DNA of 64,000 bases from Candidatus Woesearchaeota archaeon (GCA_018302335.1 JAGVZT010000001.1:3193-67192), one strand, 5' to 3'; positions 20,806 through 64,000 are shown, counted from the first letter of the stretch. The notes: generated by a model from the sequence alone, not told the origin. Numbers and translations: made by a program.

Positions 20806-20863
20806 CACCGAGAAGATTTTTGGCGGCACAACCTTTAAATGCACCCGCGCCCGGGGAGGAGCG

Positions 20864-43098: not shown

Positions 43099-43334
43099 GG
43101 CCGGCCCTCGAGCTGGCGCAGGCGCTTCTCCTGTTCCAGCATCACGCTCAGGACGAGGAAGGCCCAGGAGTGGAAGCTGCTCGCGGAAGAGACTGCCCCG
43201 TAATGCCGGTACGCCTGGGCGAGCAGGCCGTCAAGGAGTTCCTGCTCCTCCGGCCGGAGGGCCCGGCCGAAGGCGCGCATCTCGACCATCAGCAGGTCGA
43301 GAGCAACGCGCTGGCTGGACACGATGTGCCCCAT
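43089..43334 (-). CDS. hypothetical small helical protein (81 aa)
   Basis: Immediately upstream of, and overlapping, the iPolB gene start; no domain recognised. Confidence 0.4.
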   Translation of the reverse strand: MGHIVSSQRVALDLLMVEMRAFGRALRPEEQELLDGLLAQAYRHYGAVSSASSFHSWAFLVLSVMLEQEKRLRQLEGRPCG

Positions 43335-48798: not shown

Positions 48799-48873
48799 GC
48801 CCTGGTGGTGTAGTCCGGTCAATCATTCCGCCCTCTCGAGGCGGAGACCCGGGTTCAAATCCCGGCCGGGGCA
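48799..48873 (+). tRNA. tRNA-Glu (anticodon CUC)
   Basis: GCCCTGG TG GTGTAGTCCGGTCAATCAT TCCGCC CTCTCGA GGCGGA GACCC GGGTTCAAATCCCGG CCGGGGC A closely matches archaeal tRNA-Glu (GUGUAGUCCGG.CAAUCAU; T-arm GGGUUCAAAUCCC). Anticodon loop is CU-CUC-GA. No CCA encoded. Confidence 0.9.
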
Positions 48874-48879
48874 TACCTA

Positions 48880-48887
48880 GTTTTTCT
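48880..48887 (+). terminator. oligo-T archaeal terminator after tRNA-Glu
   Basis: tttttctt seven nucleotides after the tRNA 3-prime end. Confidence 0.55.
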
Positions 48888-49028
48888 TACAAAGAAGGGC
48901 ATAACTCCGCAGCGCCACAACGCAAGAGATTGCTAACAGAACATCCTAACCAGGGTTATAGGTTCTGCTGCTGGATGATGAGTTACTTTAAATAACTTTA
49001 AATACTTTAAGTCATTATTGGTTAAAGT

Positions 49029-50405
49029 ATGGAACAGAGCCTTTTCAAGGAGCTTGCCGCACTGGATGAGGGCGCCTCGCTTGAATTCAAGCGGTCCCTT
49101 TCTGATTCCGACAAGATATGCCAGACAATCTGCGCCTTTGCCAACACCACGGGCGGCCTCGTCGTCTTCGGCATACAGAAGCAGGGAAGAAAGCCTATCT
49201 TCGCCGGGATAGGAGATACGGACGCAGCGCAGAGGGAACTCCAGAACTGGATTCACAACAATCTCAGGCCGCAGCTCCGCTACAGCCTTGACACCGCCCG
49301 CTTGGAAGGCAGGCAGTTCGTGCTGCTCACCATCGAGCCGCTTCCCCTCTCCGAGATATGCTCGTTCAAGCATGGCGTCTGGCGGAGGTCGGGCTCTGCG
49401 AATATCGAGCTTTCAGGGGAGCATCTCGTCACCTTCCTGCGCGAGAGGGGCATGCTGTCCTTTGAGGAGCTGCACTCCCCTGCCCGCCTGGGGGACATGG
49501 ATACCGGGAAGATTAGGAATCTCCTCCGTGCGAGGCGCGTCGTGCCGGAAGAGCATGAGCCAATCAACTACCGGACAGTCCTTGAGAGCATGGGTGTTGC
49601 GGTCACCCTTGACAGGTTCATCCTCAAGAAGTCCGCACCCCTCTTCTTCGCGAAGGATGTATCGAAATTCCAGCCCAACTGCGAAGTCAGGATTGTAAGG
49701 TTCCGGGGCGGCGAGCATACCCTCGAGGCGAAGGATGAGGACAAACGGCATGTGGACACGATACCGGAACTCCTGCGGACGGCATTCGATGCTATCATCC
49801 GGATGGTCGGTGCAGTTTCTGCCATCAAGCACGGCCAGAGGGCCGACATCCCCGCCCTCCCCGCTGAGGTGGTCAGAGAGGCGCTGACCAATGCGGTCGG
49901 CCATCGCGATTATATCGACCCCAATGGGATTCTCGTGGAGGTATATGACGACAGGCTGCAGATTACGAATCCTGGCAGCCTGCTCTCCGGCCAGACCATC
50001 AAGAACTTTGCTGACACAAGGCGCCACCGCAACCCTACTGTGCACAGGCTGCTGAATGATGCTGGCTGGGGGGAAGGCCTGTACTTCGGCATCAAGCTGA
50101 TGTACCGCAAGATGCGGGAGGGTGGCTTTCCCGACCCCGAGTTCCAGGACCTGGGCGGCTATTTCAGGGTTGTCCTTCACACTGCACGGTCGCACAGGAA
50201 GCGGAAACCGATGGATGTGGTGAACGAGCGCCAGGCGAAGGCGATAGCCTACCTGGAGAGGCACAAGTCAATCCGCACCAGCGAGTATGCACGCATCGTA
50301 GAAGTCTCCACCGTCACAGCAGTGAAGGACCTCAACGAGCTCGTCCGGCAGGGAAGGCTGAAGAAAGTTGGGACATACCGCGGCGCCCACTACACGAAGT
50401 CGTAG
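49029..50405 (+). CDS. AlbA_2 (Schlafen-like DNA-binding) plus HATPase_c_4 (RecG-C-terminal-like) domain protein with C-terminal wHTH
   Basis: N-terminal EGASLEFKRSL...ICAFANTTGGLVVFGI (AlbA_2 signature), central REALTNAVGHRDY...ITNPG (HATPase_c_4) and a C-terminal HTH. Lower-GC flank with repeated ACTTTAAATA upstream; immediately downstream of tRNA-Glu. Confidence 0.75.
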   Translation: MEQSLFKELAALDEGASLEFKRSLSDSDKICQTICAFANTTGGLVVFGIQKQGRKPIFAGIGDTDAAQRELQNWIHNNLRPQLRYSLDTARLEGRQFVLLTIEPLPLSEICSFKHGVWRRSGSANIELSGEHLVTFLRERGMLSFEELHSPARLGDMDTGKIRNLLRARRVVPEEHEPINYRTVLESMGVAVTLDRFILKKSAPLFFAKDVSKFQPNCEVRIVRFRGGEHTLEAKDEDKRHVDTIPELLRTAFDAIIRMVGAVSAIKHGQRADIPALPAEVVREALTNAVGHRDYIDPNGILVEVYDDRLQITNPGSLLSGQTIKNFADTRRHRNPTVHRLLNDAGWGEGLYFGIKLMYRKMREGGFPDPEFQDLGGYFRVVLHTARSHRKRKPMDVVNERQAKAIAYLERHKSIRTSEYARIVEVSTVTAVKDLNELVRQGRLKKVGTYRGAHYTKS

Positions 50406-50564
50406 GTTGCTTTAAGGATTTTAAGCCTTAAAGTTCTTGGAGTAAGTTAAAGTGCTGTGAGCCATCGGCTGAAACGACATACACTCCTGGGAAAGTGAAT
50501 CCCTAACCTAACTTCGTAAACAGAACATCCTAAACTTATGTTAGTAATCCCGGCCGGGGCATAC

Positions 50565-50981
50565 TCACAGGTCCTTCAGATATGCCTCCGTGAGGGTGCG
50601 GATGAGTTTCTGGATTCCTTCAGCGTGCTCCGCCACTTCCGCTACGGAAATGTTCTGACCATAGTAGTTGATCCGGTTCCTGATGCGTCTGAAGCGGTCA
50701 TACTTTTCTGCTGCCAGCGACTCGCCCTTCTCCTTGAGATAGAAGGTGAACGCCTCATGGGAATAGACCTTGTAGCCATCCAGCACGGCCATTGCCTCTA
50801 CGATGGCTCTCAAGGTGTCGTAGTAATTGCTCATCATCTTGCGCGCGGCCTTTTCGTCCAGGGGGACGGTATCGAGGAACGCCAGGTCCTCGTGTGCGGT
50901 GGTCAGAAGCGATCTTGCGAGCTGGACGTCGCGGGATGATTTCCTGACAGAGCCGCTCTTCAGGAAATCCGAGAACGTCAC
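50565..50981 (-). CDS. HEPN-domain protein (putative toxin of a HEPN/MNT pair)
   Basis: 138-aa all-helical protein with the C-terminal R..RN..NYYG region typical of the HEPN superfamily. ATGA overlap with the upstream MNT gene, the canonical MNT-HEPN arrangement. Confidence 0.55.
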   Translation of the reverse strand: MTFSDFLKSGSVRKSSRDVQLARSLLTTAHEDLAFLDTVPLDEKAARKMMSNYYDTLRAIVEAMAVLDGYKVYSHEAFTFYLKEKGESLAAEKYDRFRRIRNRINYYGQNISVAEVAEHAEGIQKLIRTLTEAYLKDL

Positions 50982-51520
50982 AAGAAGACCTCCCAGAAAC
51001 CATGGAGCACCACGCCATTCACGAAATTGTTCAGCAACTCCATATTCTGGTCCTTCAGTCTGTCAATCTCCTGCCTGGAATGCACGAACAACTGAATTTC
51101 CTGGCCTATCTTCTTCTCGAAGGCCGAAACATCAGCAGTCCTCTTCGCGGGAGTGATAATAAGCAGGTCGACATCGCTCTGCGGGGTGCTCTCGCCTTTC
51201 CTGCATGAACCGAAGAGCACGATGGCCTCAGGATTGTTGAATCGGTCAATCAGGTAATCAATGAGTCCGGAGGACCACAGCTGCTCAATGTGGAAGCAGA
51301 GTTTCCGGTGACGATAAAGGGGATTCTGGGCATTTGCCCTGAATACCTGTGCCTGGAGCCTTTTCTCACGGACCAGAAGTCCCTGCCTCTCCAGGCTGCG
51401 AAGGTACTTCGAGGCTGTCGTTGGAGAGATGCCCAGTCTCAGCGCAAGGTTACGTACATGGAACTCGGTCCCGGGATCGCGGAGGAAGGTTTCGAGCAGC
51501 CTGTTGTGGTTTCTGTCCAT
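50978..51520 (-). CDS. minimal nucleotidyltransferase (MNT) with N-terminal wHTH
   Basis: LFGSCRKGESTPQSDVDLLI is the GS-x9-DxD nucleotidyltransferase signature; the N-terminal HVRNLALRLGISPTTASKYLRSLERQGLL is a wHTH. Confidence 0.7.
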   Translation of the reverse strand: MDRNHNRLLETFLRDPGTEFHVRNLALRLGISPTTASKYLRSLERQGLLVREKRLQAQVFRANAQNPLYRHRKLCFHIEQLWSSGLIDYLIDRFNNPEAIVLFGSCRKGESTPQSDVDLLIITPAKRTADVSAFEKKIGQEIQLFVHSRQEIDRLKDQNMELLNNFVNGVVLHGFWEVFL

Positions 51521-51546
51521 TTTTTAGGGTAACTGTTCATCTTGTT

Positions 51547-51567
51547 GGACAGTTGTCCATATAAATG
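51547..51567 (-). promoter_or_regulatory. palindrome GGACA-GT-TGTCC abutting a TATA box upstream of the HTH-MNT gene
   Basis: ggacagttgtccatataaatg on the plus strand; on the coding strand it reads catttatatgGACAACTGTCC, about 30-45 bp upstream of ATG 51520. A likely autoregulatory operator. Confidence 0.4.
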
Positions 51568-51692
51568 TTTTGGTCTCTGAGGCGCCCATTGCTGGGGTCG
51601 GCGGTGAACTCGGATTCCGGTCGGGGCATGGTTCACCGCCGTGGACACCAGGCAGCGCAATAGTTAATAAGCACCGTCCCCGACTGAGCGGC

Positions 51693-51848
51693 ATGACCAA
51701 GAGAACACTGGCATCGTACGAGAAGCCGTTGCCGAGGCAGGTCAAGAGGAGCACGGAAGGGACATGCCCCTATTGCCACAAGCATGTCCAGGCCCTGGAG
51801 CTTCATATCCATGACAAGCACCTGCGGGAAAAGCGGGTCAGGCGCTGA
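51693..51848 (+). CDS. 51-aa C2H2-type zinc-finger mini-protein
   Basis: MTKRTLASYEKPLPRQVKRSTEGTCPYCHKHVQALELHIHDKHLREKRVRR has CxxC-x12-HxxxH. TATA gttaataagc centred 26 bp upstream of the ATG (leaderless). The track ORF is longer (from 51570). Confidence 0.45.
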   Translation: MTKRTLASYEKPLPRQVKRSTEGTCPYCHKHVQALELHIHDKHLREKRVRR

Positions 51849-51928
51849 ACGCGAGCTCATCCCGTGCCGGTCCCCGCTGTCGATGGAAACTCTCCTGGAA
51901 ACCCTTAAGAACCCGGCCGATTCCATGA

Positions 51929-52669
51929 GTGGCATCTTGGACAGGAATGCATGAGACCATCGTCGCGGTGGCGGACAGCGCGGTCCGCATCCTTTCCCCG
52001 TGGAAGCTGGACCTCTCACGCTACTACGAGACTGCGGAATCGTCCGAGCTGAGCATCATCTTGCAGGACGCGGACAGCTATTCCGCGGTGTTCGAGCCTC
52101 CATACCGGGAGCTGCGCTGCTCCACTCCAGGGAACCTGGAGCAACTGGCGCGGCAGCTGGCGCTCTATCTCGGCTGCTTCCACTCGGAGCGCTACCAGGC
52201 GGTGCACGGTTGCGGACTCGTCGCGGATGGAGCCGGGATCCTCTTCTCCGGCAATTCCGGCTCCGGGAAATCGCTCATGCGCGAGCTGCACCCCCGTGCG
52301 CAGGTCCTCGATGATGATATCCTGATGCTGGATACGCTCGGGGGGAGGATGCTGGTGACAGGAAAGCGCGGGACCGTGACCGATGAAGTGGAGACGGCCC
52401 GCATCCTGGTCGAGCCTCGAAGTCCGCTGCGCGAGGCAACGCTCGACCTTGTGGTGCTGCTGGACAGCGCGCTGCCGAGCGGACATCTGGAGCGGAGAGA
52501 GGCGATTCCCAGGAGCTATGCGAAGCTGGACGCCCTGCCGGACGTGCTGCAGTCGGCCTACTGCGCGCTGCCGGACATAGAGAGCACGGTTCCGGTGCAT
52601 CTACTGGGAACGAAAGGAAAGCGGAGGGAGCTGCTCGCTGAGGCAGTGCGCTCCCTCATGTCGCGTTGA
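51929..52669 (+). CDS. P-loop protein resembling the HPr-kinase/phosphorylase C-terminal domain
   Basis: GCGLVADGAGILFSGNSGSGKS resembles the HprK-C pattern [24 protein letters not shown]. No further assignment. Confidence 0.5.
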   Translation: MASWTGMHETIVAVADSAVRILSPWKLDLSRYYETAESSELSIILQDADSYSAVFEPPYRELRCSTPGNLEQLARQLALYLGCFHSERYQAVHGCGLVADGAGILFSGNSGSGKSLMRELHPRAQVLDDDILMLDTLGGRMLVTGKRGTVTDEVETARILVEPRSPLREATLDLVVLLDSALPSGHLERREAIPRSYAKLDALPDVLQSAYCALPDIESTVPVHLLGTKGKRRELLAEAVRSLMSR

Positions 52670-54581
52670 GTATCTCCTTCCGCAGGCGCTCAATCTCCTT
52701 CAGGAGCAGCTGTCTCGTCGGGCCCGCAGAGCCCTTGTACAGCTCGTTCGCGAGATGGTAGAGCTCCTTCACTCCGGGCTCGCGGGAGCGGACTCTCCGG
52801 GAGATTTCCTCCGAGATGGCCCGCGCCAGGCTCACCGCGTCCGCCGCTGCCGAGGCCGCCGCGCTGTTGTACCGCTCGAGTTGCTTCCTCACCGCGTCAG
52901 GTGCGCCTTCCACCGAGACAGCGCCGCCGACCTGCGAAAGGGTAATCCGCTTGGCCGGTTCCGGGCGCTTCTGCCGGGAGAGCTCCTCCTCCCTCTTCCG
53001 GAGCGCGGCTTTCAGCGAGGCTACCTCCTGCTCGTTCTTCGGCATGCTAGCCTGGGCGGAGCGCGCAGCTCGCTGCAGCTGCGCTTTCTTCTTCTCGAGG
53101 GATGGCAGCGCGGCGTTGAGGGCGACCAGCCGCTCCCGAAGACGGGCCTGCTGTGCCCGGAGAGCTGCGCTCTGCTGGGCAAGCCGTTCCTTCAGTACCT
53201 GCAGCTTCCGCACCTCGGCGTGTGCCGAGCGTAAGACGGTATCCTGTCGGGAGACCAGCGCGCCCTGGGCCTGGGCGCGCCGTGAGGCGTCCGCTTCCTT
53301 CTTCCGAAGCGCCGAGACTGATGAGCCTAGAGCCCTTTCCCGGCCGCGCAGGGATGCGATATGCGAGAGAGCGGAGTGTGCCTTGCGTTTCTCGGCCGAG
53401 GCCGCCGCGAGGGCGGCACGATGCCTGCGCTCCATCGCGGTCAGCCTGTGGCGGAGCGAGGTCAGGAGGGCTTTCCCCTTCGTGAAATCCCGAGAGGAGC
53501 GGAGAGCCGCATTGCGCTGAGATGCAAGCTCGCGCCGCAGTGCGTCCAGCTCGCTCTGTTTCTGCGCGGCCTTCTTCTCGACCGACGCTGCGTCCTTGCG
53601 CTCCATGCGGGCCGCGGAGGCGTTCTGCCGCATCTGTGCCCTGGTCTCCTTCAGCCGGGCTTCCATCTGGACAAGGCGCTCCTGGCGCTCGTTGAGCATG
53701 GTCCGCGCGTGCTTCAGGTCCTGGCCGGCGCTGACCAGCGCGGCATTCCGGCCGTCGACGGCACGCCTCGCCGCGGAGAGCTTGTTGGATAGCTCCTTCC
53801 GCTTGGCTTCGAGGGATGCAAGGCGCTGATGCTCGTCCGTCTCCTCCTTGCGTGCGGCGAGGAGCTGCTGTCTGGCCTCCTCGAGGGAAAGACGGAGCTT
53901 CTCTTTCTCCTTCCGGAGCCTGTCCGCGTCGGTGGCGAGCTGGGCGTGATGCCGCTCGGCATCCTTCAGGGACTCTTCCTGTGCGGCGATGTGCGCCCGC
54001 AAGGATGACTCCTCTTGCTTGAGTCGCTCATCCTTCTCCTCATGGCGCTGGCCGAGCACATGGAGCTTCTCGCGCGCTGAGCCGAGCTCCTTCTGCAGGG
54101 CGGCGAGCGCGGCCTTCTTTTCGGAGAGATCCTTCTCCGCTGAGTCCGTCTGCTTGGATGCGGAGAGGAACTCCTTCTCCCGAGCATCCGTGCGCTTCTG
54201 CAGCCCCTCGGATTTCCTCTTCAGGCCGGCAATCCGGCGCTCGAGGCGCTGCTCCTCATCGCGGGAAGCGGCCATCTGCTCCCCGAGTGCCGCAAGCTGT
54301 GCTTCCTCGCGGCGCTTCTCCTCCTGGAACGCCGACTTCTGCCCGGCAAGCGCCTTCTCCTTCCTGGCAAGCGCTTCGTCCAGCGCGGAGAGGCGCTGCT
54401 GCTTCTCGTCCTTCTCCCGCTCCAGGCGCCTGATATGCGCCTCCCGGGAGGAGAGCTCCTTCTGCAGGCCGTCAATCTCGCGCGTGACCGAGGACAGGTA
54501 CTCCTCCAGAACCCGGACGTCGCCCTCGATGAGAGAGTGCATCTCCTTGAAACTCTCGAGCGGGCCCGGCATGCCTCCCAC
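52656..54581 (-). CDS. 641-aa coiled-coil protein (SMC/myosin-tail-like heptad repeats)
   Basis: More than 500 aa of continuous E/K/R/A/L/Q-rich heptads (LQKELSSREAHIRRLEREKDEKQQRLSAL...). Short non-coiled N- and C-termini. GTG start. Confidence 0.7.
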   Translation of the reverse strand: MGGMPGPLESFKEMHSLIEGDVRVLEEYLSSVTREIDGLQKELSSREAHIRRLEREKDEKQQRLSALDEALARKEKALAGQKSAFQEEKRREEAQLAALGEQMAASRDEEQRLERRIAGLKRKSEGLQKRTDAREKEFLSASKQTDSAEKDLSEKKAALAALQKELGSAREKLHVLGQRHEEKDERLKQEESSLRAHIAAQEESLKDAERHHAQLATDADRLRKEKEKLRLSLEEARQQLLAARKEETDEHQRLASLEAKRKELSNKLSAARRAVDGRNAALVSAGQDLKHARTMLNERQERLVQMEARLKETRAQMRQNASAARMERKDAASVEKKAAQKQSELDALRRELASQRNAALRSSRDFTKGKALLTSLRHRLTAMERRHRAALAAASAEKRKAHSALSHIASLRGRERALGSSVSALRKKEADASRRAQAQGALVSRQDTVLRSAHAEVRKLQVLKERLAQQSAALRAQQARLRERLVALNAALPSLEKKKAQLQRAARSAQASMPKNEQEVASLKAALRKREEELSRQKRPEPAKRITLSQVGGAVSVEGAPDAVRKQLERYNSAAASAAADAVSLARAISEEISRRVRSREPGVKELYHLANELYKGSAGPTRQLLLKEIERLRKEILNAT

Positions 54582-54606
54582 TGGGAAGGCATGGTTTAAA
54601 TAGATT

Positions 54607-54668
54607 TCTCAGCAGCCGGCCGCGATACCGTGCGACGCCGGCATGCCGGACATTCTCCGCAAAGCGGC
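54607..54668 (-). repeat. hairpin-forming intergenic element, copy G (reverse orientation)
   Basis: rc of 54640-54668 is gcggccgctttgcggagaatgtccgg..., matching copy C. Lies between two co-directional genes of the minus-strand operon. Confidence 0.55.
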
Positions 54669-54671
54669 CGC

Positions 54672-56141
54672 TCAGCGCTTCTCGACTTGCAGCCCGGCGA
54701 GCTCCACGGCGCCGGGACGCGTTTCCGCGAGATAGAGATTGACCCAGGGATTCTGCTCGTCGGCGTAGCTCCAGCGCGATGACACCGCTCGGAGCCACTC
54801 CCCTACCATCTGGTCGCCGGCCTTCTCGATGAACGCGATGGCCTCCCCGGTGGACCGGTAGCGCACCACGTCAGGGTCCTGGTCCTGCATCCTGGACAGA
54901 AGGTCGAAGAGCACCGGGTCCTTGCGCACCGGATAGACCATGGAGAGCTTGACATCTCCTGAGCATGAGGAGAAGTGCCCGTATGCTGCAGCTTCATCCC
55001 TGGCGCCCTCGATGGCTGCGATTGCCTCCTCCAATTCCCGCACAGTCTCCGGAGCCCGGGCGCTGTCCACCCGCCTGAAGAGGTCGGAGACGCTCGCGGC
55101 GCTCTTGAGGTCCCCTGCCTCAGCCTGGCGCGCGGCTCGGCGGAGGGTCTGGAGCCGTTCCCTGCCGGCAGAGGCAGAGTAGAAGAGGAAGCCCTCCCGG
55201 ATGAGCGCGTCGAGAAGGTCATCGGTCTCTCTGCCGTTCACGACGGCATACTGTTCGGTGCGGCGGCTCTCGCCGTTCCCTGCGCCGTGCTGGAAGTAAA
55301 CCATGAGCGGCTTCGTCCCGGTGAGAGAATACAGGTCCATGCTGTCTCCGCGGAGTTTGTAGCTCGCAGATTGCATCTTCACCGGGAATACCCCGTCCGG
55401 CCGGATGAGCCTCAGGTTCCCCAGGCCCGGGCGGCTGCCCTCTGCGCCGTACTTGAGGGTGAAGGCGTCCAGCACGGCCTGCTGCGTCTCCGCGGAGAGG
55501 ATGGAGCGGTAGTCCTCTTTCGCGTCCTGCACCACGCGATGGAGCTTCGCGAACGCCTCGAGGGCGCGAGTCGGAGTCTCGAGGGTCACCGAGAGGGAGA
55601 GACCTCCCTCGCCGAGCATTGCCGACGCGATGAGCGCCGTGGGGGTCAGCGCGGGCCCCGTGACTCTTCCGTAGAGCGCCTCTCCGAGGGTCACCTGCTG
55701 GATGAGCGGGCCCGCCTTCGCATGCACCTCGCTGAGGAGCTGCTCCATGAAGGAGAACTCGTCGCTGATGATGTCGCATTCCCGCTGCTGCGGGGAGACG
55801 ATGATGAGCCAGTCGTCGAGATCATAGCCCAGGGCGCTGCCCCCCTTGTCGATGCGGAAGCTCTCGTCCGCGACCTCTCGGCCGAGGATGTCCTGGAGCG
55901 CGGCTCGGTATCTCTCGGCGTCGCGCCCGGTGAGGGTGAGCAGACGCTTGTCGGGTATGAGCAGCACGCTGTCTTCCACGTGCTCGCGGGAGTTGAGGTA
56001 GCGCTTGCGCAGGTGCTTACCCGCGATGTCCTGCAGGATATTCCTTCCTGCTGGAGGGACAGCGCCGGCAGGCTTGCTTGCCTCCTTCTTCGTGCGCAGG
56101 CTGCGCGCGTACTCTCCCAGGTCGCTAGGCTTCCGCGTCAT
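54672..56141 (-). CDS. hypothetical protein (489 aa)
   Basis: Clean ORF; 4-bp overlap with the upstream AAA ATPase gene. No domain recognised. Confidence 0.6.
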   Translation of the reverse strand: MTRKPSDLGEYARSLRTKKEASKPAGAVPPAGRNILQDIAGKHLRKRYLNSREHVEDSVLLIPDKRLLTLTGRDAERYRAALQDILGREVADESFRIDKGGSALGYDLDDWLIIVSPQQRECDIISDEFSFMEQLLSEVHAKAGPLIQQVTLGEALYGRVTGPALTPTALIASAMLGEGGLSLSVTLETPTRALEAFAKLHRVVQDAKEDYRSILSAETQQAVLDAFTLKYGAEGSRPGLGNLRLIRPDGVFPVKMQSASYKLRGDSMDLYSLTGTKPLMVYFQHGAGNGESRRTEQYAVVNGRETDDLLDALIREGFLFYSASAGRERLQTLRRAARQAEAGDLKSAASVSDLFRRVDSARAPETVRELEEAIAAIEGARDEAAAYGHFSSCSGDVKLSMVYPVRKDPVLFDLLSRMQDQDPDVVRYRSTGEAIAFIEKAGDQMVGEWLRAVSSRWSYADEQNPWVNLYLAETRPGAVELAGLQVEKR

Positions 56142-58003
56142 TGCTTCCTCTGCTTCTTGGCCTTCTCCAGCTCGGTCATGAGCTTGTCCAGCATCTCCAT
56201 GGGCATGGTCTCGAAGCTGTACTCTGCAGCCACGACGCTTGGGTCTCCCCGCGCCATGGCGGCGAGGCGGTACTGCTTCACGTGGCGCTGGAACTCCGCT
56301 TCGTCCGCCGCCACCACATCCTTGTCGCGCGTCTCATGGTAGCTGCGGATTCCACTCTCGATGGCGTCCGTATAGACCTGGGTGAGGAAGGTCGCGTACT
56401 TCGTCTGGAAAGCGGGGATGTCCGTGCGCCGGAGCTCGTCCAGCTCGCTCCTGGCCTCCGCGGGTATCTTGAGCCCCTTGGCAGCCTCCAGCTCGAGCCG
56501 GCGGCAGAGGTTCCGGACGTCCCTGCCGGAGAGGCTGTGCGCGTAATCGTCCGGGAAGTCCGGATGGAAGCACAGCGCCCCGAGGTCCGTCCACTTCTTC
56601 TCCGGGATCTCTGCGCTCTTCTTGCTCAGGCGGACGTAGCCATGCTTGATGCCTCGCTTGAGCTCCAGCTGGAGGAGCTTCCCGAAGTCCTCGGGTGTCT
56701 CCGGGCCGGTGACGAACATCTCGTTCTGCCTCAGGCGCGATGAGAGCGCGTCGTCCAGCGTGAGCGGCTTGTTGGTCGTCGCGATGAGGAGGTAGTTGCC
56801 CAGGGTGCTCGATGCGACTCCCTCGAGCTGGTTGAGCAGCTCCTGCATGAGCCCCCGTTCCGGGGAGTCCTCACGCATATCCTCGCGGGAGGCGAGCAGC
56901 GCGTCGATGTCCTCCACGACGATGAGGTAGACCTTGTCCCCGCTGTGCACCTTGGCGAATTCCTTCCGGATGAGGTCTTCCCCCTCTCCGAACCACTTGC
57001 TCTTGATGCGGGAGTCGATGAACAGCGTCTCGAAGGGAAGACTGCGCTCCTCGGACATCCGGCTCAGGTGGGAGACCATCCCCTGGATGGTCAGCGTCTT
57101 CCCCGTTCCCGGCCTCCCTTTCAGGAGGTAGGTGTTCGGCAGCCGCACGACGTCGAGCGCAGGATTCCCGCCCTTGTCGTACCATCCCAGGAAGTTGTCC
57201 GCGATGGAGATGAGCGACTCCTTGAGGTCGGTGTTCCCGATGATCTGGTCCCATTCCACGCGCTCCACCACGGTCGCCTGGGAGAATCCCGGGCGGAACT
57301 CGAAGCCGGTGATGACCACATCGCTGACTCCCCAGGGCTCGCCCTCGAGGACCCAGCTCGCGTTGCCAAGATTGTACCGCTGCACCACGTCGCTGAAGCG
57401 GTCCTTCTCCCAGCGCACCTGGTTGATGAGGAAGCTGTACGCGCCCTGGAGGACCTTGCGCAGGTTCTCGTCGTCGATGGTGCCAAGCTTGACGTGCTGG
57501 CGCGCGAGGCCCCTGAGCACGATGTGCGTCAGGTTGTCCATCAGCTCGTCCTTCTCCAGGCTGAAATCCACGTTGAGATAGTCGTTATCCCGGTCGAGGA
57601 GGTCCGCCTCGAGGCTCTGGAGGCCCGCGCACGCCCCGGAGAAGAGGGCGTAGGCGTTGATGAACGCGCGCTCCTGCTTGGCCGCTGCCGCGTCGCCTTC
57701 GGGCTTGATGAGCTGCTCGAGACCGTCGTGTACCGCGAGGTAGGTGCCGAGGGCGCGCTTGTAGCTGGTGAGCGCGGCTATCTGCTCGGGGCTGTTCATG
57801 CACTGGTCTGCGGTCCCTGGGTCGCCGACCTGCTCCAGGACGTACTGGTAGAGGGAGAACTTCCGGTTCTGTTGGATTCCCGGCGGGAGCTTGTCCGGAG
57901 TGAACTCCGCATACGGGAAGAACGCGTTGCCCTTCAGCCAGACGCGCACTGCCTTCTCGCACTGCTTCCAAGTCGCTGGCTTCACTCTACGTGCTGTGCT
58001 CAT
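56138..58003 (-). CDS. classic AAA-family ATPase (Cdc48/FtsH-like module) with 330-aa N-terminal domain
   Basis: Walker A LLKGRPGTGKTL; SKWFGEGEDLIRKEF (compare SKWVGESEKLVRxLF); Walker B YLIVVEDIDAL; SRH-like region ATTNKPLTLDDALSSRLRQNEMF. 4-bp overlaps with both neighbours. Confidence 0.85.
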   Translation of the reverse strand: MSTARRVKPATWKQCEKAVRVWLKGNAFFPYAEFTPDKLPPGIQQNRKFSLYQYVLEQVGDPGTADQCMNSPEQIAALTSYKRALGTYLAVHDGLEQLIKPEGDAAAAKQERAFINAYALFSGACAGLQSLEADLLDRDNDYLNVDFSLEKDELMDNLTHIVLRGLARQHVKLGTIDDENLRKVLQGAYSFLINQVRWEKDRFSDVVQRYNLGNASWVLEGEPWGVSDVVITGFEFRPGFSQATVVERVEWDQIIGNTDLKESLISIADNFLGWYDKGGNPALDVVRLPNTYLLKGRPGTGKTLTIQGMVSHLSRMSEERSLPFETLFIDSRIKSKWFGEGEDLIRKEFAKVHSGDKVYLIVVEDIDALLASREDMREDSPERGLMQELLNQLEGVASSTLGNYLLIATTNKPLTLDDALSSRLRQNEMFVTGPETPEDFGKLLQLELKRGIKHGYVRLSKKSAEIPEKKWTDLGALCFHPDFPDDYAHSLSGRDVRNLCRRLELEAAKGLKIPAEARSELDELRRTDIPAFQTKYATFLTQVYTDAIESGIRSYHETRDKDVVAADEAEFQRHVKQYRLAAMARGDPSVVAAEYSFETMPMEMLDKLMTELEKAKKQRKQ

Positions 58004-59151
58004 CGTGCCACCTCATGGTATATCTTGAGCGGGCTTCCCTTGGTGAGCTCCGCCAGGACCGCTCTCGCCTGCGCGTCGCAGACCGCAAGCTCGTCCGACG
58101 CGACGTCCTCCCTGCGGTAATCCTCGCGGAAGGAGTCCTTGCGGAGGCGGAGGGGCTTCCGTATCGTCCCCCTGCTCGAGAGGTAGTCCCGCCGGTAGCG
58201 GAGGAATGCGATGTCAGGATTCGCTTCGAGAAGCTCGCGCAGCGCGCGCCCTTCCCTTCCCCGCATGGTGCTGAGGTCGCGGACGTTTGCGCTGTAGAAA
58301 GGCCCGTACACCCCGATGGAGACGTGCTTCGGGTGCAGCGCCTCGATGCTGTCCAGGCCCTCCATGAGGTCGTAGGGAGTTCCCCAGAATTTCCGGGTGA
58401 GCATATCGGAGAGTTCCGCGGAGATGACCGCGCTCTTTCCTTCCATGCGGAGATCCTTCGCCGTCCCGCGCATCGGGATATCCTGGTCAAGGATGATGAT
58501 GCAGCTGTTGTATGCAGCCTGCGGCAGATTGTATGCGGTGAACACCAGCTTGAAGCGCTCGGTCGACATCCCGTCAGGGGTGAGATTACCCTTGCCCACG
58601 CGCATTGCGCGCAGGTCGGTGTGCAGGTCGCTCTTCGACGCAAGGGGGATGTCCAGCGTCTTTGTCCGGCGCGAGAAGTCGAGTTCCCGGACCGCAGCCG
58701 TAAGCTCCTCGAAGCGCCCCGCGTACGCATTCCCCGGGAGATTCTCGTCGAAGAGCAGGTCCTCCAGGGCAGCAGCAAGCGCGGCTTCCCGATGGGGCTC
58801 CGGAGCGTTGCGCACGTCCGACAGCCTGGTCAGGAGATAGTCGAAACGCGGCAGGCCGCTCTCGGTATCCACGCTTACCTCGCGCCAGACTCCTGTGTTC
58901 TCGTGGAAGTCCTCAGCTCCGCTGATGTACCGCAGCGCTCCCATCGCGGCCCGGACTCGGTTGAGTTCTTTTGCGAGGTCAGCCAGCACCCCGCGATGCA
59001 GCTTCCTGCTCTCTTCGGGGATGCCTGGGGCGGTGGGAAGTCCAGGGTCCGACGCGAGCTGCTCCGCAAGCTGCCCGGTCTGTCCGAGCAGCTTCGCGAG
59101 GTAGCGCTCTTTCTCCTCTCCCTTGAGGGAGACAAAGCCCGAGGGGCTCAT
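58000..59151 (-). CDS. hypothetical protein (383 aa)
   Basis: Start MSPSGFVSLKGEEKERYLAKLLGQ with GGGAGG 8 nt upstream. The 95 extra track codons upstream are R/S/P-rich junk overlapping the previous gene. Confidence 0.6.
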   Translation of the reverse strand: MSPSGFVSLKGEEKERYLAKLLGQTGQLAEQLASDPGLPTAPGIPEESRKLHRGVLADLAKELNRVRAAMGALRYISGAEDFHENTGVWREVSVDTESGLPRFDYLLTRLSDVRNAPEPHREAALAAALEDLLFDENLPGNAYAGRFEELTAAVRELDFSRRTKTLDIPLASKSDLHTDLRAMRVGKGNLTPDGMSTERFKLVFTAYNLPQAAYNSCIIILDQDIPMRGTAKDLRMEGKSAVISAELSDMLTRKFWGTPYDLMEGLDSIEALHPKHVSIGVYGPFYSANVRDLSTMRGREGRALRELLEANPDIAFLRYRRDYLSSRGTIRKPLRLRKDSFREDYRREDVASDELAVCDAQARAVLAELTKGSPLKIYHEVAR

Positions 59152-59155
59152 GTAT

Positions 59156-60478
59156 TCAGCCTCCCTGCGGCGCGGTCTCCTCCTTCTCCTGCCGCTCGAT
59201 ATCGGCGAGGATCTGGTCGATGCGCTTGGGCTTCTCCGCCTTCGTGGGGTCCGCCACGTAGGCAGGGTCCACATAGATTCCCTGCTGCGTGAGATGGTAC
59301 GCGTTGGAGAAACGCCGCTGCTCATCCTGGGTCTCGCGGGAGTAGGCCTTGACCTGCTCCATAACTTCTTCCTCGAAGAAGGGTTTCGCGAGCATCTCCA
59401 TCGCCTCGTGGGCGATTCCCCGCGCAGCAAGCACATTCATCATCATGACCTCGTTGGCCGCCTTCATGGTGCGGTTGTAGAGGTTGATGAGACGCGTCGC
59501 GTGCATCGCGCTCGCTGCGGTCTTGCCGTTCTGCTGGAAGATGGGCATCGAGTACTTGATTTGCGCCTCGTACCCTATCTGCATCATCTCATACGACGCG
59601 ACGAGACTCTGCACCGTCAGGAGAGTCGCCTCCTGTGCGCGACTGGAGTTCTCGGACTGGTCCAGCAGCTTGTCCGCGCGGTTGCGCTCATTCCGCAGGT
59701 TGTTCACCGTCAGCTCCTTCTGCTGGAGTTCGCCCTGCGCAGCGGTCACGCTGCGCCCGAACTCTTCCCTGGCGAGCTTCTCCGCATCGTTGAGCATCGG
59801 CATCTGCTCCCACTGGGAGACCAGTGTGTCATACTCTCCTTTCTTGGTTTCCATCTCGCGCTCGGCGCCGAGCACCACCTGGTCGAGCCTGGTGGATTCT
59901 CCTCGCCAGTGGTCTGACTCTTCATGGAGGTAGTCGAGATGGGAATGGCCATCTGCCTCGAGCGTCTGGAGCTGCTTGAGCGAGCCCTTGATACTGTTCC
60001 CTGCGCCGGTGAAGTTGCGTATAGTGTCCCCGATGATAGAGTCCAGGAGGCCGCCGCTCCGCTCCGCGCGGTCGAGCATCTTGTTCTTGCCGTAGGTCTT
60101 CAGGAACGGCACCCCGCTGAGGAAGCCCCGATGCATCGAGCGGTACAGGCCCCACATGACGCCCTTCGCGCGCATCCTGCCCAACGCGCCCTGCCAGTTG
60201 GAGGAGAGGTCCTTGTGCTGCTCAACGAGGTCGTCGAGCTCAAGGGCGTACTCGGCCATCATCCTTGCGAAGTTCTCGACAGTGATGCCGCTCTTCCCGA
60301 AAAGCGTGGTCTGCTCGCCGAGGGACTGCTGCTGGTCAGCTCTGCTCCGGCGGCCGCGCTCCAGCACGTCGCGCGGATTCTCCATGCTGCGCTCGCCCGA
60401 GAGCGTGTCGTAGAGGCTCATCCCCCCGCGGCGAACCTGCTTCAAATCTTCCATTGCGGTGTCCTGCTTCTTGGCCAT
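59156..60478 (-). CDS. hypothetical coiled-coil protein (440 aa), possibly TelA-like (toxic anion resistance family). This is a recollection-level guess.
   Basis: Largely helical with long Q/E/R-rich segments. First gene of the minus-strand operon; TATA TATTTAGT and SD GAGGTGAGG upstream. Confidence 0.55.
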   Translation of the reverse strand: MAKKQDTAMEDLKQVRRGGMSLYDTLSGERSMENPRDVLERGRRSRADQQQSLGEQTTLFGKSGITVENFARMMAEYALELDDLVEQHKDLSSNWQGALGRMRAKGVMWGLYRSMHRGFLSGVPFLKTYGKNKMLDRAERSGGLLDSIIGDTIRNFTGAGNSIKGSLKQLQTLEADGHSHLDYLHEESDHWRGESTRLDQVVLGAEREMETKKGEYDTLVSQWEQMPMLNDAEKLAREEFGRSVTAAQGELQQKELTVNNLRNERNRADKLLDQSENSSRAQEATLLTVQSLVASYEMMQIGYEAQIKYSMPIFQQNGKTAASAMHATRLINLYNRTMKAANEVMMMNVLAARGIAHEAMEMLAKPFFEEEVMEQVKAYSRETQDEQRRFSNAYHLTQQGIYVDPAYVADPTKAEKPKRIDQILADIERQEKEETAPQGG

Positions 60479-60885
60479 CCCTTCCTCACCTCATTTGGAT
60501 ACCGGGCGATGACGCCATCCCCCGTTTGTACACTAAATATGTACTACGCAGGGGTGAATCTATATTCACTTAAAAGGTTTACTATGGTTGGCACCCTCCT
60601 GTACAATGCGCCTCTCACCCCGCGTAGGGATTACCGCCCTTTCAGGGTGCATCTCGTCGGTGGGCGTGGCCGCGTTAAAAACATTCCCACTGAAAATTCA
60701 GCGTAATCGGAATTTGCAGGCTGTTCATATCTGATTTCACGGGAATCTTTGGCAGAGCATTCAAATGGTGGCGGGACTTGCCGTCGCCAGTGAGGGAAAA
60801 TCAGGAAGCGGAGGCGGAACCTTTATATTGCAATGAAAATTCCTAAAATCACCACTGTCAGATACCAAATAGGGAGGGACCAAGA

Positions 60886-61542
60886 ATGAACGATGCGCCG
60901 GCTGACCCGCTTCAAGACCTGCCGCCCGAGCGGCCGCTCGAATTCCGCACCGACGACGCGCTGTACGTCTTCCTCATCGGTCCGGGCGTCGCGAGAGTCG
61001 AGGAGAACTACCGCGTCGCGTGGGAGGCCGAATCCCGCGCCGGAGATACCGTCTGGCGGCTGAGCGAGCCGGAGCTTGCGAAGGCCCCGACGCTCCGTGG
61101 CAAGGGCCCGCTGGGGATGACTCTCCGGGAACTGCTCACCGAGTACGTGATGAACTTCCAGGGCGACCGCATCGCGGACGCCCAGCAGAAGCTGCTCTGG
61201 AGGACAGCGAGGGATTTTATTGGAAGGGAGCAGCGTGGTGGAAGAAGCCTGCGTGAGCCCGGCGTCCAAGATCAGCGTCAGGACATCGTGTACACCCTCA
61301 CTCCGCTCTCCGGGATGGACAAGCCGAAGCCAATCACCTCGCTGGATGAGCAGGTGGGCGAGAACTGCTGGCTCACGAAGCTGGTGCCGAGCAACCTTGG
61401 CCACCCGCCGAGCGACGACGAGGTCGCGATGTGGATGTACGGCTTTCGCCTCGTGTACTCGGAGCATCAGGCAGGCGGGCTCATCATCGGACCTCTCGGG
61501 GGAGAGGAGATAGCGAGGCTCTCCGAGCATTATACGAAGTGA
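60886..61542 (+). CDS. hypothetical protein (218 aa)
   Basis: TATA cctttatattgc (around 60822-60832) and SD GGGAGGGA 10 nt upstream of the ATG. Normal composition, unlike the overlapping antisense ORF. Confidence 0.6.
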   Translation: MNDAPADPLQDLPPERPLEFRTDDALYVFLIGPGVARVEENYRVAWEAESRAGDTVWRLSEPELAKAPTLRGKGPLGMTLRELLTEYVMNFQGDRIADAQQKLLWRTARDFIGREQRGGRSLREPGVQDQRQDIVYTLTPLSGMDKPKPITSLDEQVGENCWLTKLVPSNLGHPPSDDEVAMWMYGFRLVYSEHQAGGLIIGPLGGEEIARLSEHYTK

Positions 61543-61546
61543 GCGC

Positions 61547-62866
61547 ATGGCACTGGAAGAACCCTACATCAGGCATCTGCTCGAGGACGGAGCCGTCGTT
61601 CTCGGAGGACGGTTGTACAAGCCGAGCGGGAACGAGCAAGCGATGGAGGGTGATGCGGTGCTCGCCATCGGCGCGAGGAGCCTGAAGCTGGAGCCGCTCG
61701 CACTGGCCTTCGATATCGAGCGCGCGTACTTCGAGGACCCGGTCGTGAGCGAGCAGATGCAGGAGATGCAGATGAAACTGCTGAAGAAGTACTCCTCGCA
61801 GCTCGGGACCAAGGTCAAGGACCTGTTCATCGAGCAGGAGCTGCTCGCGTTCATCTCAGAGGAAGTTCTCCCGTACTTCGCGACGAGCGGAGATGAGCTT
61901 GCCCGCATCGCGGGACGCAGGCTCCAGCCCGCGAAGGAGAAGAAGTCCTCAAAGGGGCTGCGCGCTCTCGGCGTCCGGCCCACGCGCCAGAGACCCGCAC
62001 CGCTTCGAGAGGCCAGCCTCCTCGAAGATACCCTTGCCGAGCTTTCCCTCGGCGACGTGTGCACCGCGCGCGCGGGAGGCGGGACGCTCGTATACTCGCT
62101 TGCCCTCACGGATGCTCCGAGCGGGCCGTCGGTCTCCGTCGGCGGCAGGATTTACTCGCTCGTGTACCGGATGCCGTTTGAGAAGTTCGCGCAGGCGTAC
62201 AATCAGCGGCTCGCGAGGAAGCTCCAGCAGGATGCCCTTGCGGGCGAGGAGGGCGCTGCTGATGCGTTGAGCGAGAAACGCACGCTGGAGCAGCGCGTCC
62301 GGGAGAGTGTCTCGAAGGTGCAGGACCTCAGGGTGGAGCGCCTCGCGCCGGACAAGTACCTGCTCACCCTGGGGGTGCCCCAGTTCGCGAACCGAGGGGA
62401 GGACGGCGGTATCTACGTCTTCCCCCCGTGCGAGGTCTCCGTGGCGCTTTACGCGGTACGAGTCCAGCCGGGCAAGCCCTGCGATATCCGCTATGTGAAG
62501 CCCTTTGTCAAAGGGGCGTATCTCCATCCCTTCGTGCAGCACCACAGGAAGCTTGAGCAGGGCATCATCGAGGAGAACAAGTCCATCTGCCTCGATGATG
62601 ACCTGGAGAAGGACCGCTCGCGATGGGCGACCGCGCGGCTGGAGAGCATGTCCCTCGGCCAGAAGGTCGCAGGATATCTGATGCTCGGCCGCGACATCCT
62701 GGTCACCGGCTACAAGCTGGAGGGCAGTCCTGGTAAGTACAAGCTGCTCAACAGGCCGCGCAGCGCCTTCGTCTATGACAGGCAGGCCTACCTTCCGCTC
62801 AAGAAAGACGAGAAATGGCTCAGAGAGCATGGCATGGTCGTCAGCAACACCCAGGAGGAGGTATGA
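61547..62866 (+). CDS. hypothetical protein (439 aa) with a C-terminal UBC/E2-like HPx...G...ICLD motif
   Basis: YLHPFVQHHRKLEQGIIEENKSICLDDDL resembles the E2 active-site block HPN[IV]...G.ICLD[IL]. The Asn is replaced by Phe and the spacing is longer, so this is only suggestive. 4-nt spacer after the previous gene. Confidence 0.6.
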   Translation: MALEEPYIRHLLEDGAVVLGGRLYKPSGNEQAMEGDAVLAIGARSLKLEPLALAFDIERAYFEDPVVSEQMQEMQMKLLKKYSSQLGTKVKDLFIEQELLAFISEEVLPYFATSGDELARIAGRRLQPAKEKKSSKGLRALGVRPTRQRPAPLREASLLEDTLAELSLGDVCTARAGGGTLVYSLALTDAPSGPSVSVGGRIYSLVYRMPFEKFAQAYNQRLARKLQQDALAGEEGAADALSEKRTLEQRVRESVSKVQDLRVERLAPDKYLLTLGVPQFANRGEDGGIYVFPPCEVSVALYAVRVQPGKPCDIRYVKPFVKGAYLHPFVQHHRKLEQGIIEENKSICLDDDLEKDRSRWATARLESMSLGQKVAGYLMLGRDILVTGYKLEGSPGKYKLLNRPRSAFVYDRQAYLPLKKDEKWLREHGMVVSNTQEEV

Positions 62867-64000
62867 ACATGAGTGACATCGCTGCCTATATGACGAAGAA
62901 GATGCAGGAGCGCGGCAAGGAGCGCACAATCATCATCCCCGCGACGCAGGAGATAGAGATGGTCCGCATCTCTCCAGGGGCAGTGGCGAAATTCTACGCC
63001 ATACGGGACATCTACCGGGACATGCTCCGGGAGTCCGGCGCGAGGAGCGAAGTGGAGGCGAGCCAGGAGTTCTATACCTGGGGAGTCCGCCAGCGAGGAG
63101 AGGACATCACACGGGACTTCTACCTGCCGCACCAGACGGAGAACACCACCGTCCGCACGAACTTCGACCCGCTGGAGGAGGCGCTCACCTCCGACCTGAG
63201 GCAGTATCTCGAAGGAACCGACCTCGAGGTGTACTGCTGGACGCATATCCATCCATGGCCGCAGTCCTATGCCTCTGTAGTTCACCCGAGTTCGACCGAC
63301 AGGGAGAACAACAAGCGCATCCTGAGCTGGCTCGCAGGCCAGGAGGGCAGCCGCCTCCGCGGCTATGACGTGACCAAGATGCCGTCCCTCAAGAGGACGC
63401 TCGAAGGCGAGGTCCTGGAGCTTTCGGACGAGACCAGCCTGAACGTCTACCGCGTCCGGCTGGACCGCAGCGGGCTTTCGGCTGCCCTGCAGGAAAGCCT
63501 CGGCAAGCGGGGACTCAAGGCAGACAAGGAGAAGACGGACGCTGCGTTGCAGGAGGCGCTGGAGCATTCGGGGCTCGTCGCGTCCCTGGAGGACCACTCT
63601 CCGGTGTACATCGCGTACAGCAAGAGCCTCATCTTCAATTGCCGGGCGTCTCCCGCGGAGCTGGCAGGGCTCTTCTCCCCCGAGAGCGGAAGGACCGACG
63701 AGAGCCATCTCTACGGGGAAGTGTTCGGATACCTCCTCGACAGCCACGGCAGGATTGTGCAGGACTCCTATTTCTGCCAGGAAGTTCCCGTCCGGGTCGT
63801 TCCCGTCGCGGGAGACTTCGAGCTGACCGCGGAGGGGACGCTCGCTCCGAAATATCTCGGCGCGCTGGAGGCCGAGGTGCGGAAGCGCATCAACCTCGAC
63901 CGCAGGACCCGCCGGGCGACCGAGGTGGAGAAGGCAATCAAGGAGGCAGCAACACCCATTCCCATCGTGGAGCCCGCGGACGTGATGGTTCCGGTGCAGG
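62863..64000 (+). CDS. hypothetical protein, partial (runs off right edge), with a JAB/MPN-like HxH-x7-S-xx-H motif
   Basis: Not in the ORF track because it is incomplete. ATG in an ATGA overlap with the previous stop; SD CAGGAGGAGG. Translation MNMSDIAAYMTKKMQERGKERTIIIPATQEIEMVRISPG...EVEASQEFYTWGV...LEVYCWTHIHPWPQSYASVVHPSSTD... The block EVEASQEFYTWGV ... HIHPWPQSYASVVH parallels the JAMM E...HxHx7SxxD pattern, with His in place of Asp. Confidence 0.5.
   Translation, partial: MNMSDIAAYMTKKMQERGKERTIIIPATQEIEMVRISPGAVAKFYAIRDIYRDMLRESGARSEVEASQEFYTWGVRQRGEDITRDFYLPHQTENTTVRTNFDPLEEALTSDLRQYLEGTDLEVYCWTHIHPWPQSYASVVHPSSTDRENNKRILSWLAGQEGSRLRGYDVTKMPSLKRTLEGEVLELSDETSLNVYRVRLDRSGLSAALQESLGKRGLKADKEKTDAALQEALEHSGLVASLEDHSPVYIAYSKSLIFNCRASPAELAGLFSPESGRTDESHLYGEVFGYLLDSHGRIVQDSYFCQEVPVRVVPVAGDFELTAEGTLAPKYLGALEAEVRKRINLDRRTRRATEVEKAIKEAATPIPIVEPADVMVPVQ

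Follow-up and report, generated by a model that had tools for sequence, protein, structure and literature searches.

Only recently has protein conjugation been demonstrated for prokaryotic operons that encode E1, E2, JAB and ubiquitin-like (Ubl) proteins (CBASS Cap2/Cap3, Bil, Bub). Here we describe a gene cluster from a Candidatus Woesearchaeota archaeon (GCA_018302335.1 JAGVZT010000001.1:3193-67192; this whole stretch of 64,000 nucleotides (nt) is called the window below), in which one operon encodes a classic-clade AAA+ ATPase (P3) and three companion proteins (P2, P4 and P5), while the divergently transcribed one encodes a candidate modifier (P6), an E2-like protein (P7), a predicted JAMM protease (P8) and, just past the window, an E1 enzyme. 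We consider it probable that this locus (54672-64000 and ~8 kb further) is a ubiquitin-like conjugation system joined to an AAA+ unfoldase. An earlier note, made from the DNA alone, had proposed an undescribed multi-gene system with the parts list of Ubl conjugation and an unfoldase-type AAA ATPase, a proposal that the JAB protein, the E1, the Gly-Gly protein, the E2-like family and the synteny described below bear out.

The closest known kind of system is BilABCD, described as types I and II (Chambers et al., PMC10557695; summary in PMC11601596). It shares with the locus a four-gene plan in which the Ubl has a conserved C-terminal Gly and, in some cases, a short tail to be removed; the E2 is diverged, the peptidase is of the JAB/JAMM type, and the E1 is one chain in which an inactive adenylation domain accompanies an active one. 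The sequence feature of Bil-type Ubls (C-terminal Gly, optional short tail) is found in the P6-type proteins, whose tail would also be removed. However, as judged by sequence comparison, membership in the Bil family fails on the CYS domain, the E2 motif and overall sequence. The Bil E1 carries a helical CYS domain of ~80 amino acids (aa) in the crossover loop, whereas the loop is short here and contains Cys402; BilB of type II has the pattern C-E-H-H, whereas here His-Pro precedes the Cys in an E2-like protein that is 2-4 times larger; and the tag of the present family is 116-220 aa long, with an unverified fold, and has an AAA+ unfoldase as a recurrent partner. The hosts differ too (Rhizobiaceae for BilABCD; mainly DPANN and other archaea, Chloroflexi and Desulfobacterota here).

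The ubiquitin (Ub) operon of Caldiarchaeum subterraneum (Ub, E1, E2, RING E3, Rpn11; PMC5654768, PMC6043591) resembles the locus in being archaeal and in having a tag precursor processed by a JAMM enzyme, as predicted here, and the P8 family has its best solved match in the Rpn11 of this operon (CsRpn11); however, Ub, E2 and E1 are eukaryote-like there and an E3 is present, whereas in the locus neither P6 nor P7 is recognised by Ub or UBC models and a RING protein was not seen. The nearest precedent for an AAA+ ATPase coupled to a Ubl system is provided by the FtsH ternary systems (Kaur et al. 2020, PMC7159879, section 21), which likewise comprise a classic-clade FtsH-type AAA+ enzyme, a Ubl/E1/E2/JAB set and unique alpha-helical proteins. 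They are defined, however, by further parts that were not found here: MoxR, vWA, an FtsH ATPase of two domains (the N-terminal AAA domain being inactive), a fusion of Ubl and E2, a RING E3 and effectors of caspase type (MoxR and vWA have no Pfam match in the locus, and the candidate Ubl and the E2-like protein are encoded by separate genes). The ubiquitin-Cdc48/proteasome, SAMP-PAN/Cdc48 and Pup-Mpa pathways offer a broader parallel, with a tag handed to a hexameric AAA+ unfoldase and detagging by an Rpn11-type JAMM enzyme; the pore loop of P3 (SKWFGEGE) resembles that of p97, and relatives of the locus use PAN-like ATPases with a proteasomal OB domain. They differ from the locus in that it contains neither a 20S proteasome nor another protease gene, in that its tag and E2-like protein are unrelated in sequence, and in that gene order is what points to the coupling. 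A full-text search of a limited set of papers found no description of the family or of its coupling to AAA+ ATPases.

The putative conjugation genes and their relatives

An exact look-up of P7 retrieved the same locus on longer public contigs (L001-L003), with window coordinates equal to L002 coordinates + 51546. Related loci were collected from the contigs of the few full-length E1 relatives and from a scan of one genome per species, which gave ~30 non-redundant loci; open reading frames (ORFs) were called in all of them, and iterated hidden Markov model searches were run within this locus database. The loci are labelled as Woese-, Pace- and Nanoarchaeota, Aenigmatarchaeota, Methanosarcinales, Promethearchaeota, Chloroflexia, Syntrophobacterales and other Desulfobacterota. 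An exhaustive phmmer search with P6 and P7 against 1.84 billion representative sequences reported 15 matches, only one of which was a relative of P6.

P8 is, on the strength of its motif and of its family's profile matches, a JAMM/MPN+ metalloprotease. Its N-terminal 200 residues define a family that adjoins the E1 gene in related loci, and in the alignment of 24 family members E69, W126, H128, H130, S143 and D146 are invariant or nearly so. P8 by itself matches neither Prok-JAB (PF14464) nor JAB (PF01398). The family profile matches CsRpn11 at 1.6e-9 as the best solved structure, and also BRCC36, Pyrococcus JAMM1, CSN5, Rpn11 and AMSH; PF14464 is matched by 13 and PF01398 by 7 of the 24 members, while BilC was matched by the profile only at E = 0.42. 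These profile searches agree with the JAB/MPN-like character that the earlier note had assigned to P8, but the metal motif given there (HxH-x7-S-xx-H) was wrongly spaced, the actual one being E69...H128-x-H130...S143-x-x-D146.

The E1 (471 aa) matches PF00899 (ThiF) at 3.6e-46 in two stretches, which correspond to two tandem ThiF-like domains. Residues 1-225 alone match ThiF (residues 13-191), Uba4 and MoeB and contain no catalytic motifs; all invariants of the family (GxGxxG 251-256, N283, R286, Q287, K301, D334, D341 and C402) lie in the C-terminal half, a ThiF-type adenylation domain with its nucleotide loop. At the level of sequence, this distribution makes the E1 a pseudo-dimer within one chain, built like eukaryotic E1s and BilD (PMC10557695) from one inactive and one active adenylation domain. 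Among solved structures, the E1 profile matches MoeB at 9e-36 and Uba1/Uba7/SAE2 at ~1e-33. MoeB residues 26-247 align with the active domain (aa 227-453) without a long insertion, which leaves no room for a CYS domain of ~80 aa of the BilD/Uba1 type; the invariant Cys402 lies in a short crossover loop. MoeB, ThiF and Uba5-type enzymes carry a reactive cysteine in this loop. The E1 had escaped the earlier note, in which neither an E1 nor a Ubl was recognisable: the extended contigs place it immediately downstream of the window, and the candidate Ubl, with a fold yet to be verified, is P6, within the window.

P7 is the putative E2-like partner. Its C-terminal ~180 residues define a family encoded next to E1 in ~30 loci, with Cys348 invariant and His327-Pro328 nearly so. 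The family consensus (P-x-V-x3-Y-x-H-P-F-(L/V)-x(6-18)-Q-x-I-C-x-G, followed by a helix that ends in G-Y) runs in the same order as the UBC segment 'PxVxFxTxIYHPNI...G.ICL'; His-Pro stands 20 residues ahead of the Cys, and no E or H is conserved after it. Aligning the family with four human E2s by hhalign yielded as the sole local match HPF...IC onto HPN...ICL, with a probability of 0.35%, which is not significant and is therefore no evidence by itself. The AlphaFold model of P7, calculated from 17 sequences with a mean predicted local distance difference test score (pLDDT) of 79.7, comprises two N-terminal modules, each a four-strand meander with helices, that are homologous to each other (hhalign 66%, E 5.6e-5), and a third module (aa 261-390) in which a meander sheet, the His-Pro loop and Cys348 are followed by a long helix. 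Foldseek reported nothing significant for this model in the PDB, and the P7 profile had no match to Bil proteins among the PDB sequences. P7 and 27 members of its family have no Pfam match, PF00179 included, and no significant match among the PDB sequences. What had been noticed as an E2/UBC-like block is the conserved core, of catalytic type, of a family that resides beside E1 and JAB genes, while structure comparison of the model supports a UBC (E2) fold weakly. The members of the family are 380-675 aa long and carry extra domains. A word-indexed homology search with P7 recovered P7 alone, and one with the family profile recovered 5 proteins.

Two variations of the P7 arrangement were observed. 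In L005 (ERZ21878447) two paralogues of the P7 family (6370-8040 and 11664-13337) flank the JAB and E1 genes and are followed by radical-SAM and sigma-54-DBD-like genes. Two Promethearchaeota (Asgard-labelled) loci, L029 (3670-6094) and L034 (912-3479), are compact, with 264-267 aa for the P7-like protein, 244-254 aa for JAB and 288-327 aa for the E1 ORF; the crude ORF calling used detected in them no ORF with a Gly-Gly end upstream.

P6 is likely a Gly-Gly modifier, for which we infer the name 'Ubl'. Its two detectable relatives, in L004 and in the Chloroflexi locus L009, share with it an invariant Gly-Gly (197-198 in P6) placed after a hydrophobic, strand-like segment (FRLVYSEHQAGG). The L009 orthologue stops exactly at this Gly-Gly, while tails of 20 and 11 residues follow it in P6 and in the L004 orthologue, respectively. 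In the other loci the ORF directly 5' of the P7 homologue encodes a protein of 116-220 aa that ends in '...YLYVxxRAIKPQEGG' or '...LEIEVSAVQQGG', in some cases followed by a short tail. Gly-Gly occurs within the last 23 residues in 19 of the 20 ORFs that precede a P7 homologue (the 20th has it before a longer tail), against 14.7% of 2624 ORFs of similar size, and four of the 20 end exactly in Gly-Gly, against a background of 1.3%. These small Gly-Gly proteins fall into two sequence groups, between which hhalign finds homology (91%, E 1e-6). We regard the Gly-Gly end of the P6-type proteins as established by these comparisons; a small ORF of this kind is what the earlier note had suggested looking for. 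By analogy with BilA/BilC and CsUb/CsRpn11 (PMC10557695, PMC6043591), P6 is predicted to be cleaved after Gly198.

Linkage to AAA+ ATPases

P3 matches PF00004 at 1.1e-18, and its best solved relatives are Cdc48, VAT and p97. The features of the classic clade are all present (Walker A, Walker B, pore loop and the second region of homology, TTNKP...SSRLRQ), and these motifs fit a substrate-threading unfoldase. No other protein of the locus has a P-loop. Its N-terminal region of ~285 aa has no family assignment; whether it represents a degenerate AAA domain in the style of the FtsH ternary systems was considered and rejected, as hhalign found it not to be AAA-like.

Both divergent operons are kept gene for gene in L004 (P2, P3, P4, P5 on one side; P6, P7, P8, E1 and two single-pass membrane proteins on the other), although the flanks differ (TrmO, NOG1, Nuo). 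The E1 proteins of the two loci are 58% identical and the others 41-47% (P5 41%, P4 41%, P2 47%), and the L004 orthologue of P3 was found at 5e-164. None of the companions of P3 could be assigned to a known family: P5 has no match in Pfam, NCBIfam, PHROG or the PDB (profile search at E<=5), and P4 and P2 have no family match and no match in PDB profile searches. The earlier suggestion that P5 is TelA-like was not upheld, in that Pfam reports no TelA (PF05816), PspA or Snf7 family for it at E<=1. The C-terminus of P5 (59156-59170) reads ...APQGG followed by the stop codon and is similar to the PQEGG with which small tag proteins of related loci end; this may be due to chance, because the L004 orthologue has no such ending.

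An AAA+ ATPase gene is linked to the conjugation genes in 17 loci, many of the remaining loci being on cut contigs, and belongs to one of three families: Cdc48-like, PAN-like, or AAA_2 with ClpB_D2-small (ClpX/HslU-like). The PAN-like enzyme is encoded directly upstream of the Gly-Gly protein (L005, L012, L013, L016), and its proteasomal OB domain was recognised in two of the three proteins scanned (23.9-27 bits; cut-off 23). The AAA_2 + ClpB_D2-small enzyme is encoded between the E2-like and JAB genes (L020, L024-L026, L028, L031, L033, L040, L073, L075). The recruitment of three unfoldase families to one conjugation cassette is the strongest argument for tagging and unfolding acting together. 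Conservation of the gene neighbourhood, the lack of which the earlier note had named among the grounds for refuting its proposal, is found both as synteny with L004 and as linkage to AAA+ ATPases in the 17 loci.

Another arrangement was observed in L088 (3087-5770) and L089 (2931-5614), where a pair of genes for a P6-like protein of 196 aa and a P7-like protein of 666 aa has genes for an ArsA-type ATPase and a sigma-70 protein after it and no JAB or E1 gene beside it. This pair can therefore occur apart from the remainder of the system.

Functional interpretation

What we observe directly is which genes are present, their catalytic motifs and Gly-Gly ends, the synteny and the repeated linkage to AAA+ ATPases; every biochemical step and the direction of the ATPase coupling are modelled here on the Bil, Caldiarchaeum, SAMP and proteasome precedents. 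By this analogy, P8 would trim the 20-residue tail of P6 and expose Gly197-Gly198, after which the E1 would adenylate the C-terminus of P6 and take it over as a thioester on Cys402. The tag would then move to Cys348 of P7 and thence to target proteins. P3, aided by P5, P4 and P2, may recognise the tagged proteins and unfold or extract them, and P8 may also strip and recycle the tag, as Rpn11 does at the proteasome. The membrane proteins encoded after E1 (two single-pass proteins and six paralogues) are possible targets, anchors or effectors. The role of the system is most likely an accessory stress or conflict function rather than a housekeeping one, because the family is patchily distributed across phyla, is rare (the 15 matches among 1.84 billion sequences) and lies here beside a lower-GC islet, at a tRNA-Glu gene, with a Schlafen/AlbA_2-HATPase regulator and an MNT nucleotidyltransferase.

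Several observations weigh against a conjugation system joined to an unfoldase. No E3, target or protease partner was identified. By hhalign, P6 has no detectable similarity to the other small Gly-Gly proteins, the comparison of Gly-Gly proteins with ubiquitin, NEDD8, SUMO and Urm1 was not significant, and the AlphaFold model of P6, built from a two-sequence alignment, reached a pLDDT of 33.7, too low to show a beta-grasp fold. As to gene linkage, L007 has full flanks and no adjacent AAA+ ATPase, the leftward operon P2-P5 is known from two lineages only, and the tag and E2-like genes of L088 have no JAB or E1 gene next to them.

More tentatively, and with less confidence than we place in the locus being a conjugation system joined to an unfoldase, we suggest that the family may constitute a separate, scattered 'tag-and-unfold' pathway outside the eukaryote-like Ub systems, with a Gly-Gly modifier whose sequence is unrelated to ubiquitin, a single-chain E1, a new E2-like family, dedicated and independently recruited unfoldases (Cdc48-, PAN- or ClpX-like) that read the conjugates, and recycling by an Rpn11-like JAMM enzyme.

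We think it rather unlikely that the locus is instead a divergent Bil antiviral system, in which the Ubl is conjugated to virion proteins and blocks virus assembly and the AAA operon is an add-on. The same four-part set is present in Bil (Ubl with C-terminal Gly and tail, E2-like, JAB, inactive + active E1; PMC10557695), the distribution is patchy and crosses phyla, and an islet with a Schlafen/AlbA_2 regulator and an MNT nucleotidyltransferase adjoins the locus. However, the P8 profile is far closer to CsRpn11 than to BilC (1.6e-9 vs E = 0.42), no Bil E1 is among the best 60 solved matches of the E1 profile, and the active domain of the E1 cannot accommodate the CYS insertion of ~80 aa. P7, from a family of 380-675 aa proteins with extra domains, has His-Pro upstream of the Cys instead of C-E-H-H; furthermore, P6, P7 and P8 have no PADLOC match, and there is no link to a virus.

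Divergent transcription would also suit two unrelated operons that are mere neighbours, a plus-strand Ubl system and an independent minus-strand AAA module, and in keeping with this P2, P4 and P5 have no detectable relatives beyond two lineages and some related Ubl clusters have no AAA+ ATPase. We nevertheless judge this improbable, given that the divergent pair is intact in L004 despite different surroundings and that three AAA+ families have been recruited into the Ubl-E2L-JAB-E1 cluster elsewhere, often between the E2-like and JAB genes.

Least probable, in our view, is a sulfur-carrier or biosynthetic pathway (ThiS/MoaD/CysO type) in which the E1 activates a Gly-Gly carrier, JAB releases it, nothing is conjugated and P7 is not an E2: MoeB and ThiF are indeed the nearest relatives of the active E1 domain, an E2 fold for P7 has weak support, and trios of E1, JAB and Gly-Gly protein reportedly occur in cysteine and siderophore biosynthesis (Iyer et al. 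2006 are said to have listed them), but neither the locus within the window nor its closest relative encodes a rhodanese, sulfurtransferase or biosynthetic enzyme, ~30 loci show the trio strictly linked to a protein whose Cys is invariant, the E1 shares with conjugating E1s the plan of a pseudo-dimer in one chain, and AAA+ unfoldases recur.

Organization of the locus and its surroundings

The positions of the genes and motifs are collected in Table 1. All eight ORFs proposed in the earlier note are real according to the six-frame ORF list, as are the AAA ATPase (PF00004) and the short gaps and overlaps: P5 and P4 are separated by 4 nt and P6 and P7 by 4 nt, and 4-bp overlaps join P4/P3, P3/P2 and P7/P8. 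Third-position GC of 0.78-0.89 marks the true reading frames. The spacer between the operons contains A/T-rich TATA-like boxes and strong Shine-Dalgarno (SD) sites in both orientations, in line with the TATA boxes that had been reported there for both directions. Apart from coiled-coil noise for P1, the seven proteins other than P3 have no match in Pfam, NCBIfam, PADLOC or PHROG, and every system-specific protein checked at NCBI, P6 and P7 included, is named 'hypothetical protein', with 'Candidatus Woesearchaeota archaeon' as the label of the identical entries.

Table 1. Genes, motifs and control region of the locus (window coordinates)
Feature	Position	Strand	Basis or remark
P1, coiled-coil protein, 641 aa	52656-54581	minus	six-frame ORF list
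P2, 489 aa, last conserved gene of the leftward operon	54672-56141	minus	six-frame ORF list
P3, classic-clade AAA+ ATPase, 621 aa	56138-58003	minus	PF00004; relatives Cdc48, VAT, p97
P3 Walker B, VVEDID	56903-56920	minus	
P3 pore loop, KWFG	56987-56998	minus	SKWFGEGE, like p97 D2
P3 Walker A, GRPGTGKT	57095-57118	minus	
P4, 383 aa	58000-59151	minus	internal ATG as start, same as public gene calls
P5, 440 aa, mostly helical, first gene of the leftward operon	59156-60478	minus	ORF list
Divergent control region separating the two operons	60479-60885		TATA-like A/T-rich boxes and SD sites
P6, candidate ubiquitin-like modifier precursor, 218 aa	60886-61542	plus	invariant Gly197-Gly198, then 20-aa tail
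P6 Gly197-Gly198 codons, predicted processing/activation site	61474-61479	plus	invariant alignment column
P7, putative E2-like protein, 439 aa	61547-62866	plus	two N-terminal repeat modules and C-terminal catalytic-type domain (~aa 256-410)
P7 His327-Pro328-Phe329 to Cys348, putative active-site segment	62525-62590	plus	conserved in the family; the 'HPxV...ICLD' block of the earlier note
P8, predicted JAMM/MPN+ metalloprotease, 421 aa in full	62863-64000, past window end	plus	full length from identical contigs
P8 JAMM motif, E69 ... W126-x-H128-x-H130 ... S143-x-x-D146	63067-63300	plus	family alignment

P1, which had been proposed as an SMC-like member of the system, resembles SMC proteins in its coiled coil only and has no Walker A motif; its matches are limited to the coiled-coil regions of SMC/JetC and lie far below curated cut-offs. 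The gene probably starts at the ATG at 54572, and its own TATA-like box and SD site make a separate transcription unit likely. No homologue of P1 was found among the ORFs of L004, whose available sequence stops ~400 nt past the P2 orthologue. P1 is probably not part of the system.

Beyond the window, the P8 gene is completed and the gene of the ThiF-family E1 starts 2 nt past its end; next come the genes of the two membrane proteins with a single pass each (204 aa and 517 aa), then six paralogues in tandem and a small VKOR-like membrane protein. The paralogues (L002 16142-19928, ~3.7-7.5 kb past the window end) are ~200 aa long and 26-37% identical to one another; they share an N-terminal 'RWSNxKL' segment, and a C-terminal membrane segment is predicted in five of the six. 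They are confined to this lineage and were not found in L004, which is why we do not count them as core components.

On the left, the block adjoins an islet next to a tRNA-Glu gene (48799-48873), as had been noticed before; the stretch to the right of this gene, within 48799-52669, has a lower GC content (0.55-0.60). It encodes a Schlafen AlbA_2 + HATPase_c_4 + helix-turn-helix (HTH) protein (49029-50405) and an HTH-MNT nucleotidyltransferase (50978-51520, minus strand), and looks like an integrated islet with genes of toxin-antitoxin or defence type. Between it and P1 lies an ORF of 246 aa (51929-52669, plus strand) with an HprK-like P-loop (GNSGSGKS), whose 3' end overlaps the end of P1 by 14 nt and which has no match in Pfam, NCBIfam or PHROGs. 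Further left, the window contains genes for an archaeal family B DNA polymerase (40612-43230, minus strand) and a Mg-translocating P-type ATPase (20678-23410, plus strand), which as ordinary chromosomal genes indicate that the window is part of the host chromosome and not of a virus or plasmid; the polymerase also marks the host as an archaeon. A search of the virus families in PHROG found no match for the proteins of the locus.

Implications

The family adds an E2-like protein and a candidate Gly-Gly tag, which current Pfam, NCBIfam and PADLOC models do not recognise, and a eukaryote-style single-chain E1 without a CYS domain. Its repeated genetic link to three kinds of AAA+ unfoldases is the functional hallmark of ubiquitin-proteasome/Cdc48 biology. 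With occurrences in DPANN, Methanosarcinales and Asgard-labelled archaea as well as in bacteria, the family bears on the question of which prokaryotic E1/E2/JAB/Ubl operons sit near the roots of eukaryotic ubiquitin. If the coupling is real, the locus would be a compact model in which to test how tagging came to be linked with unfolding, and it may also yield a new orthogonal conjugation toolkit.

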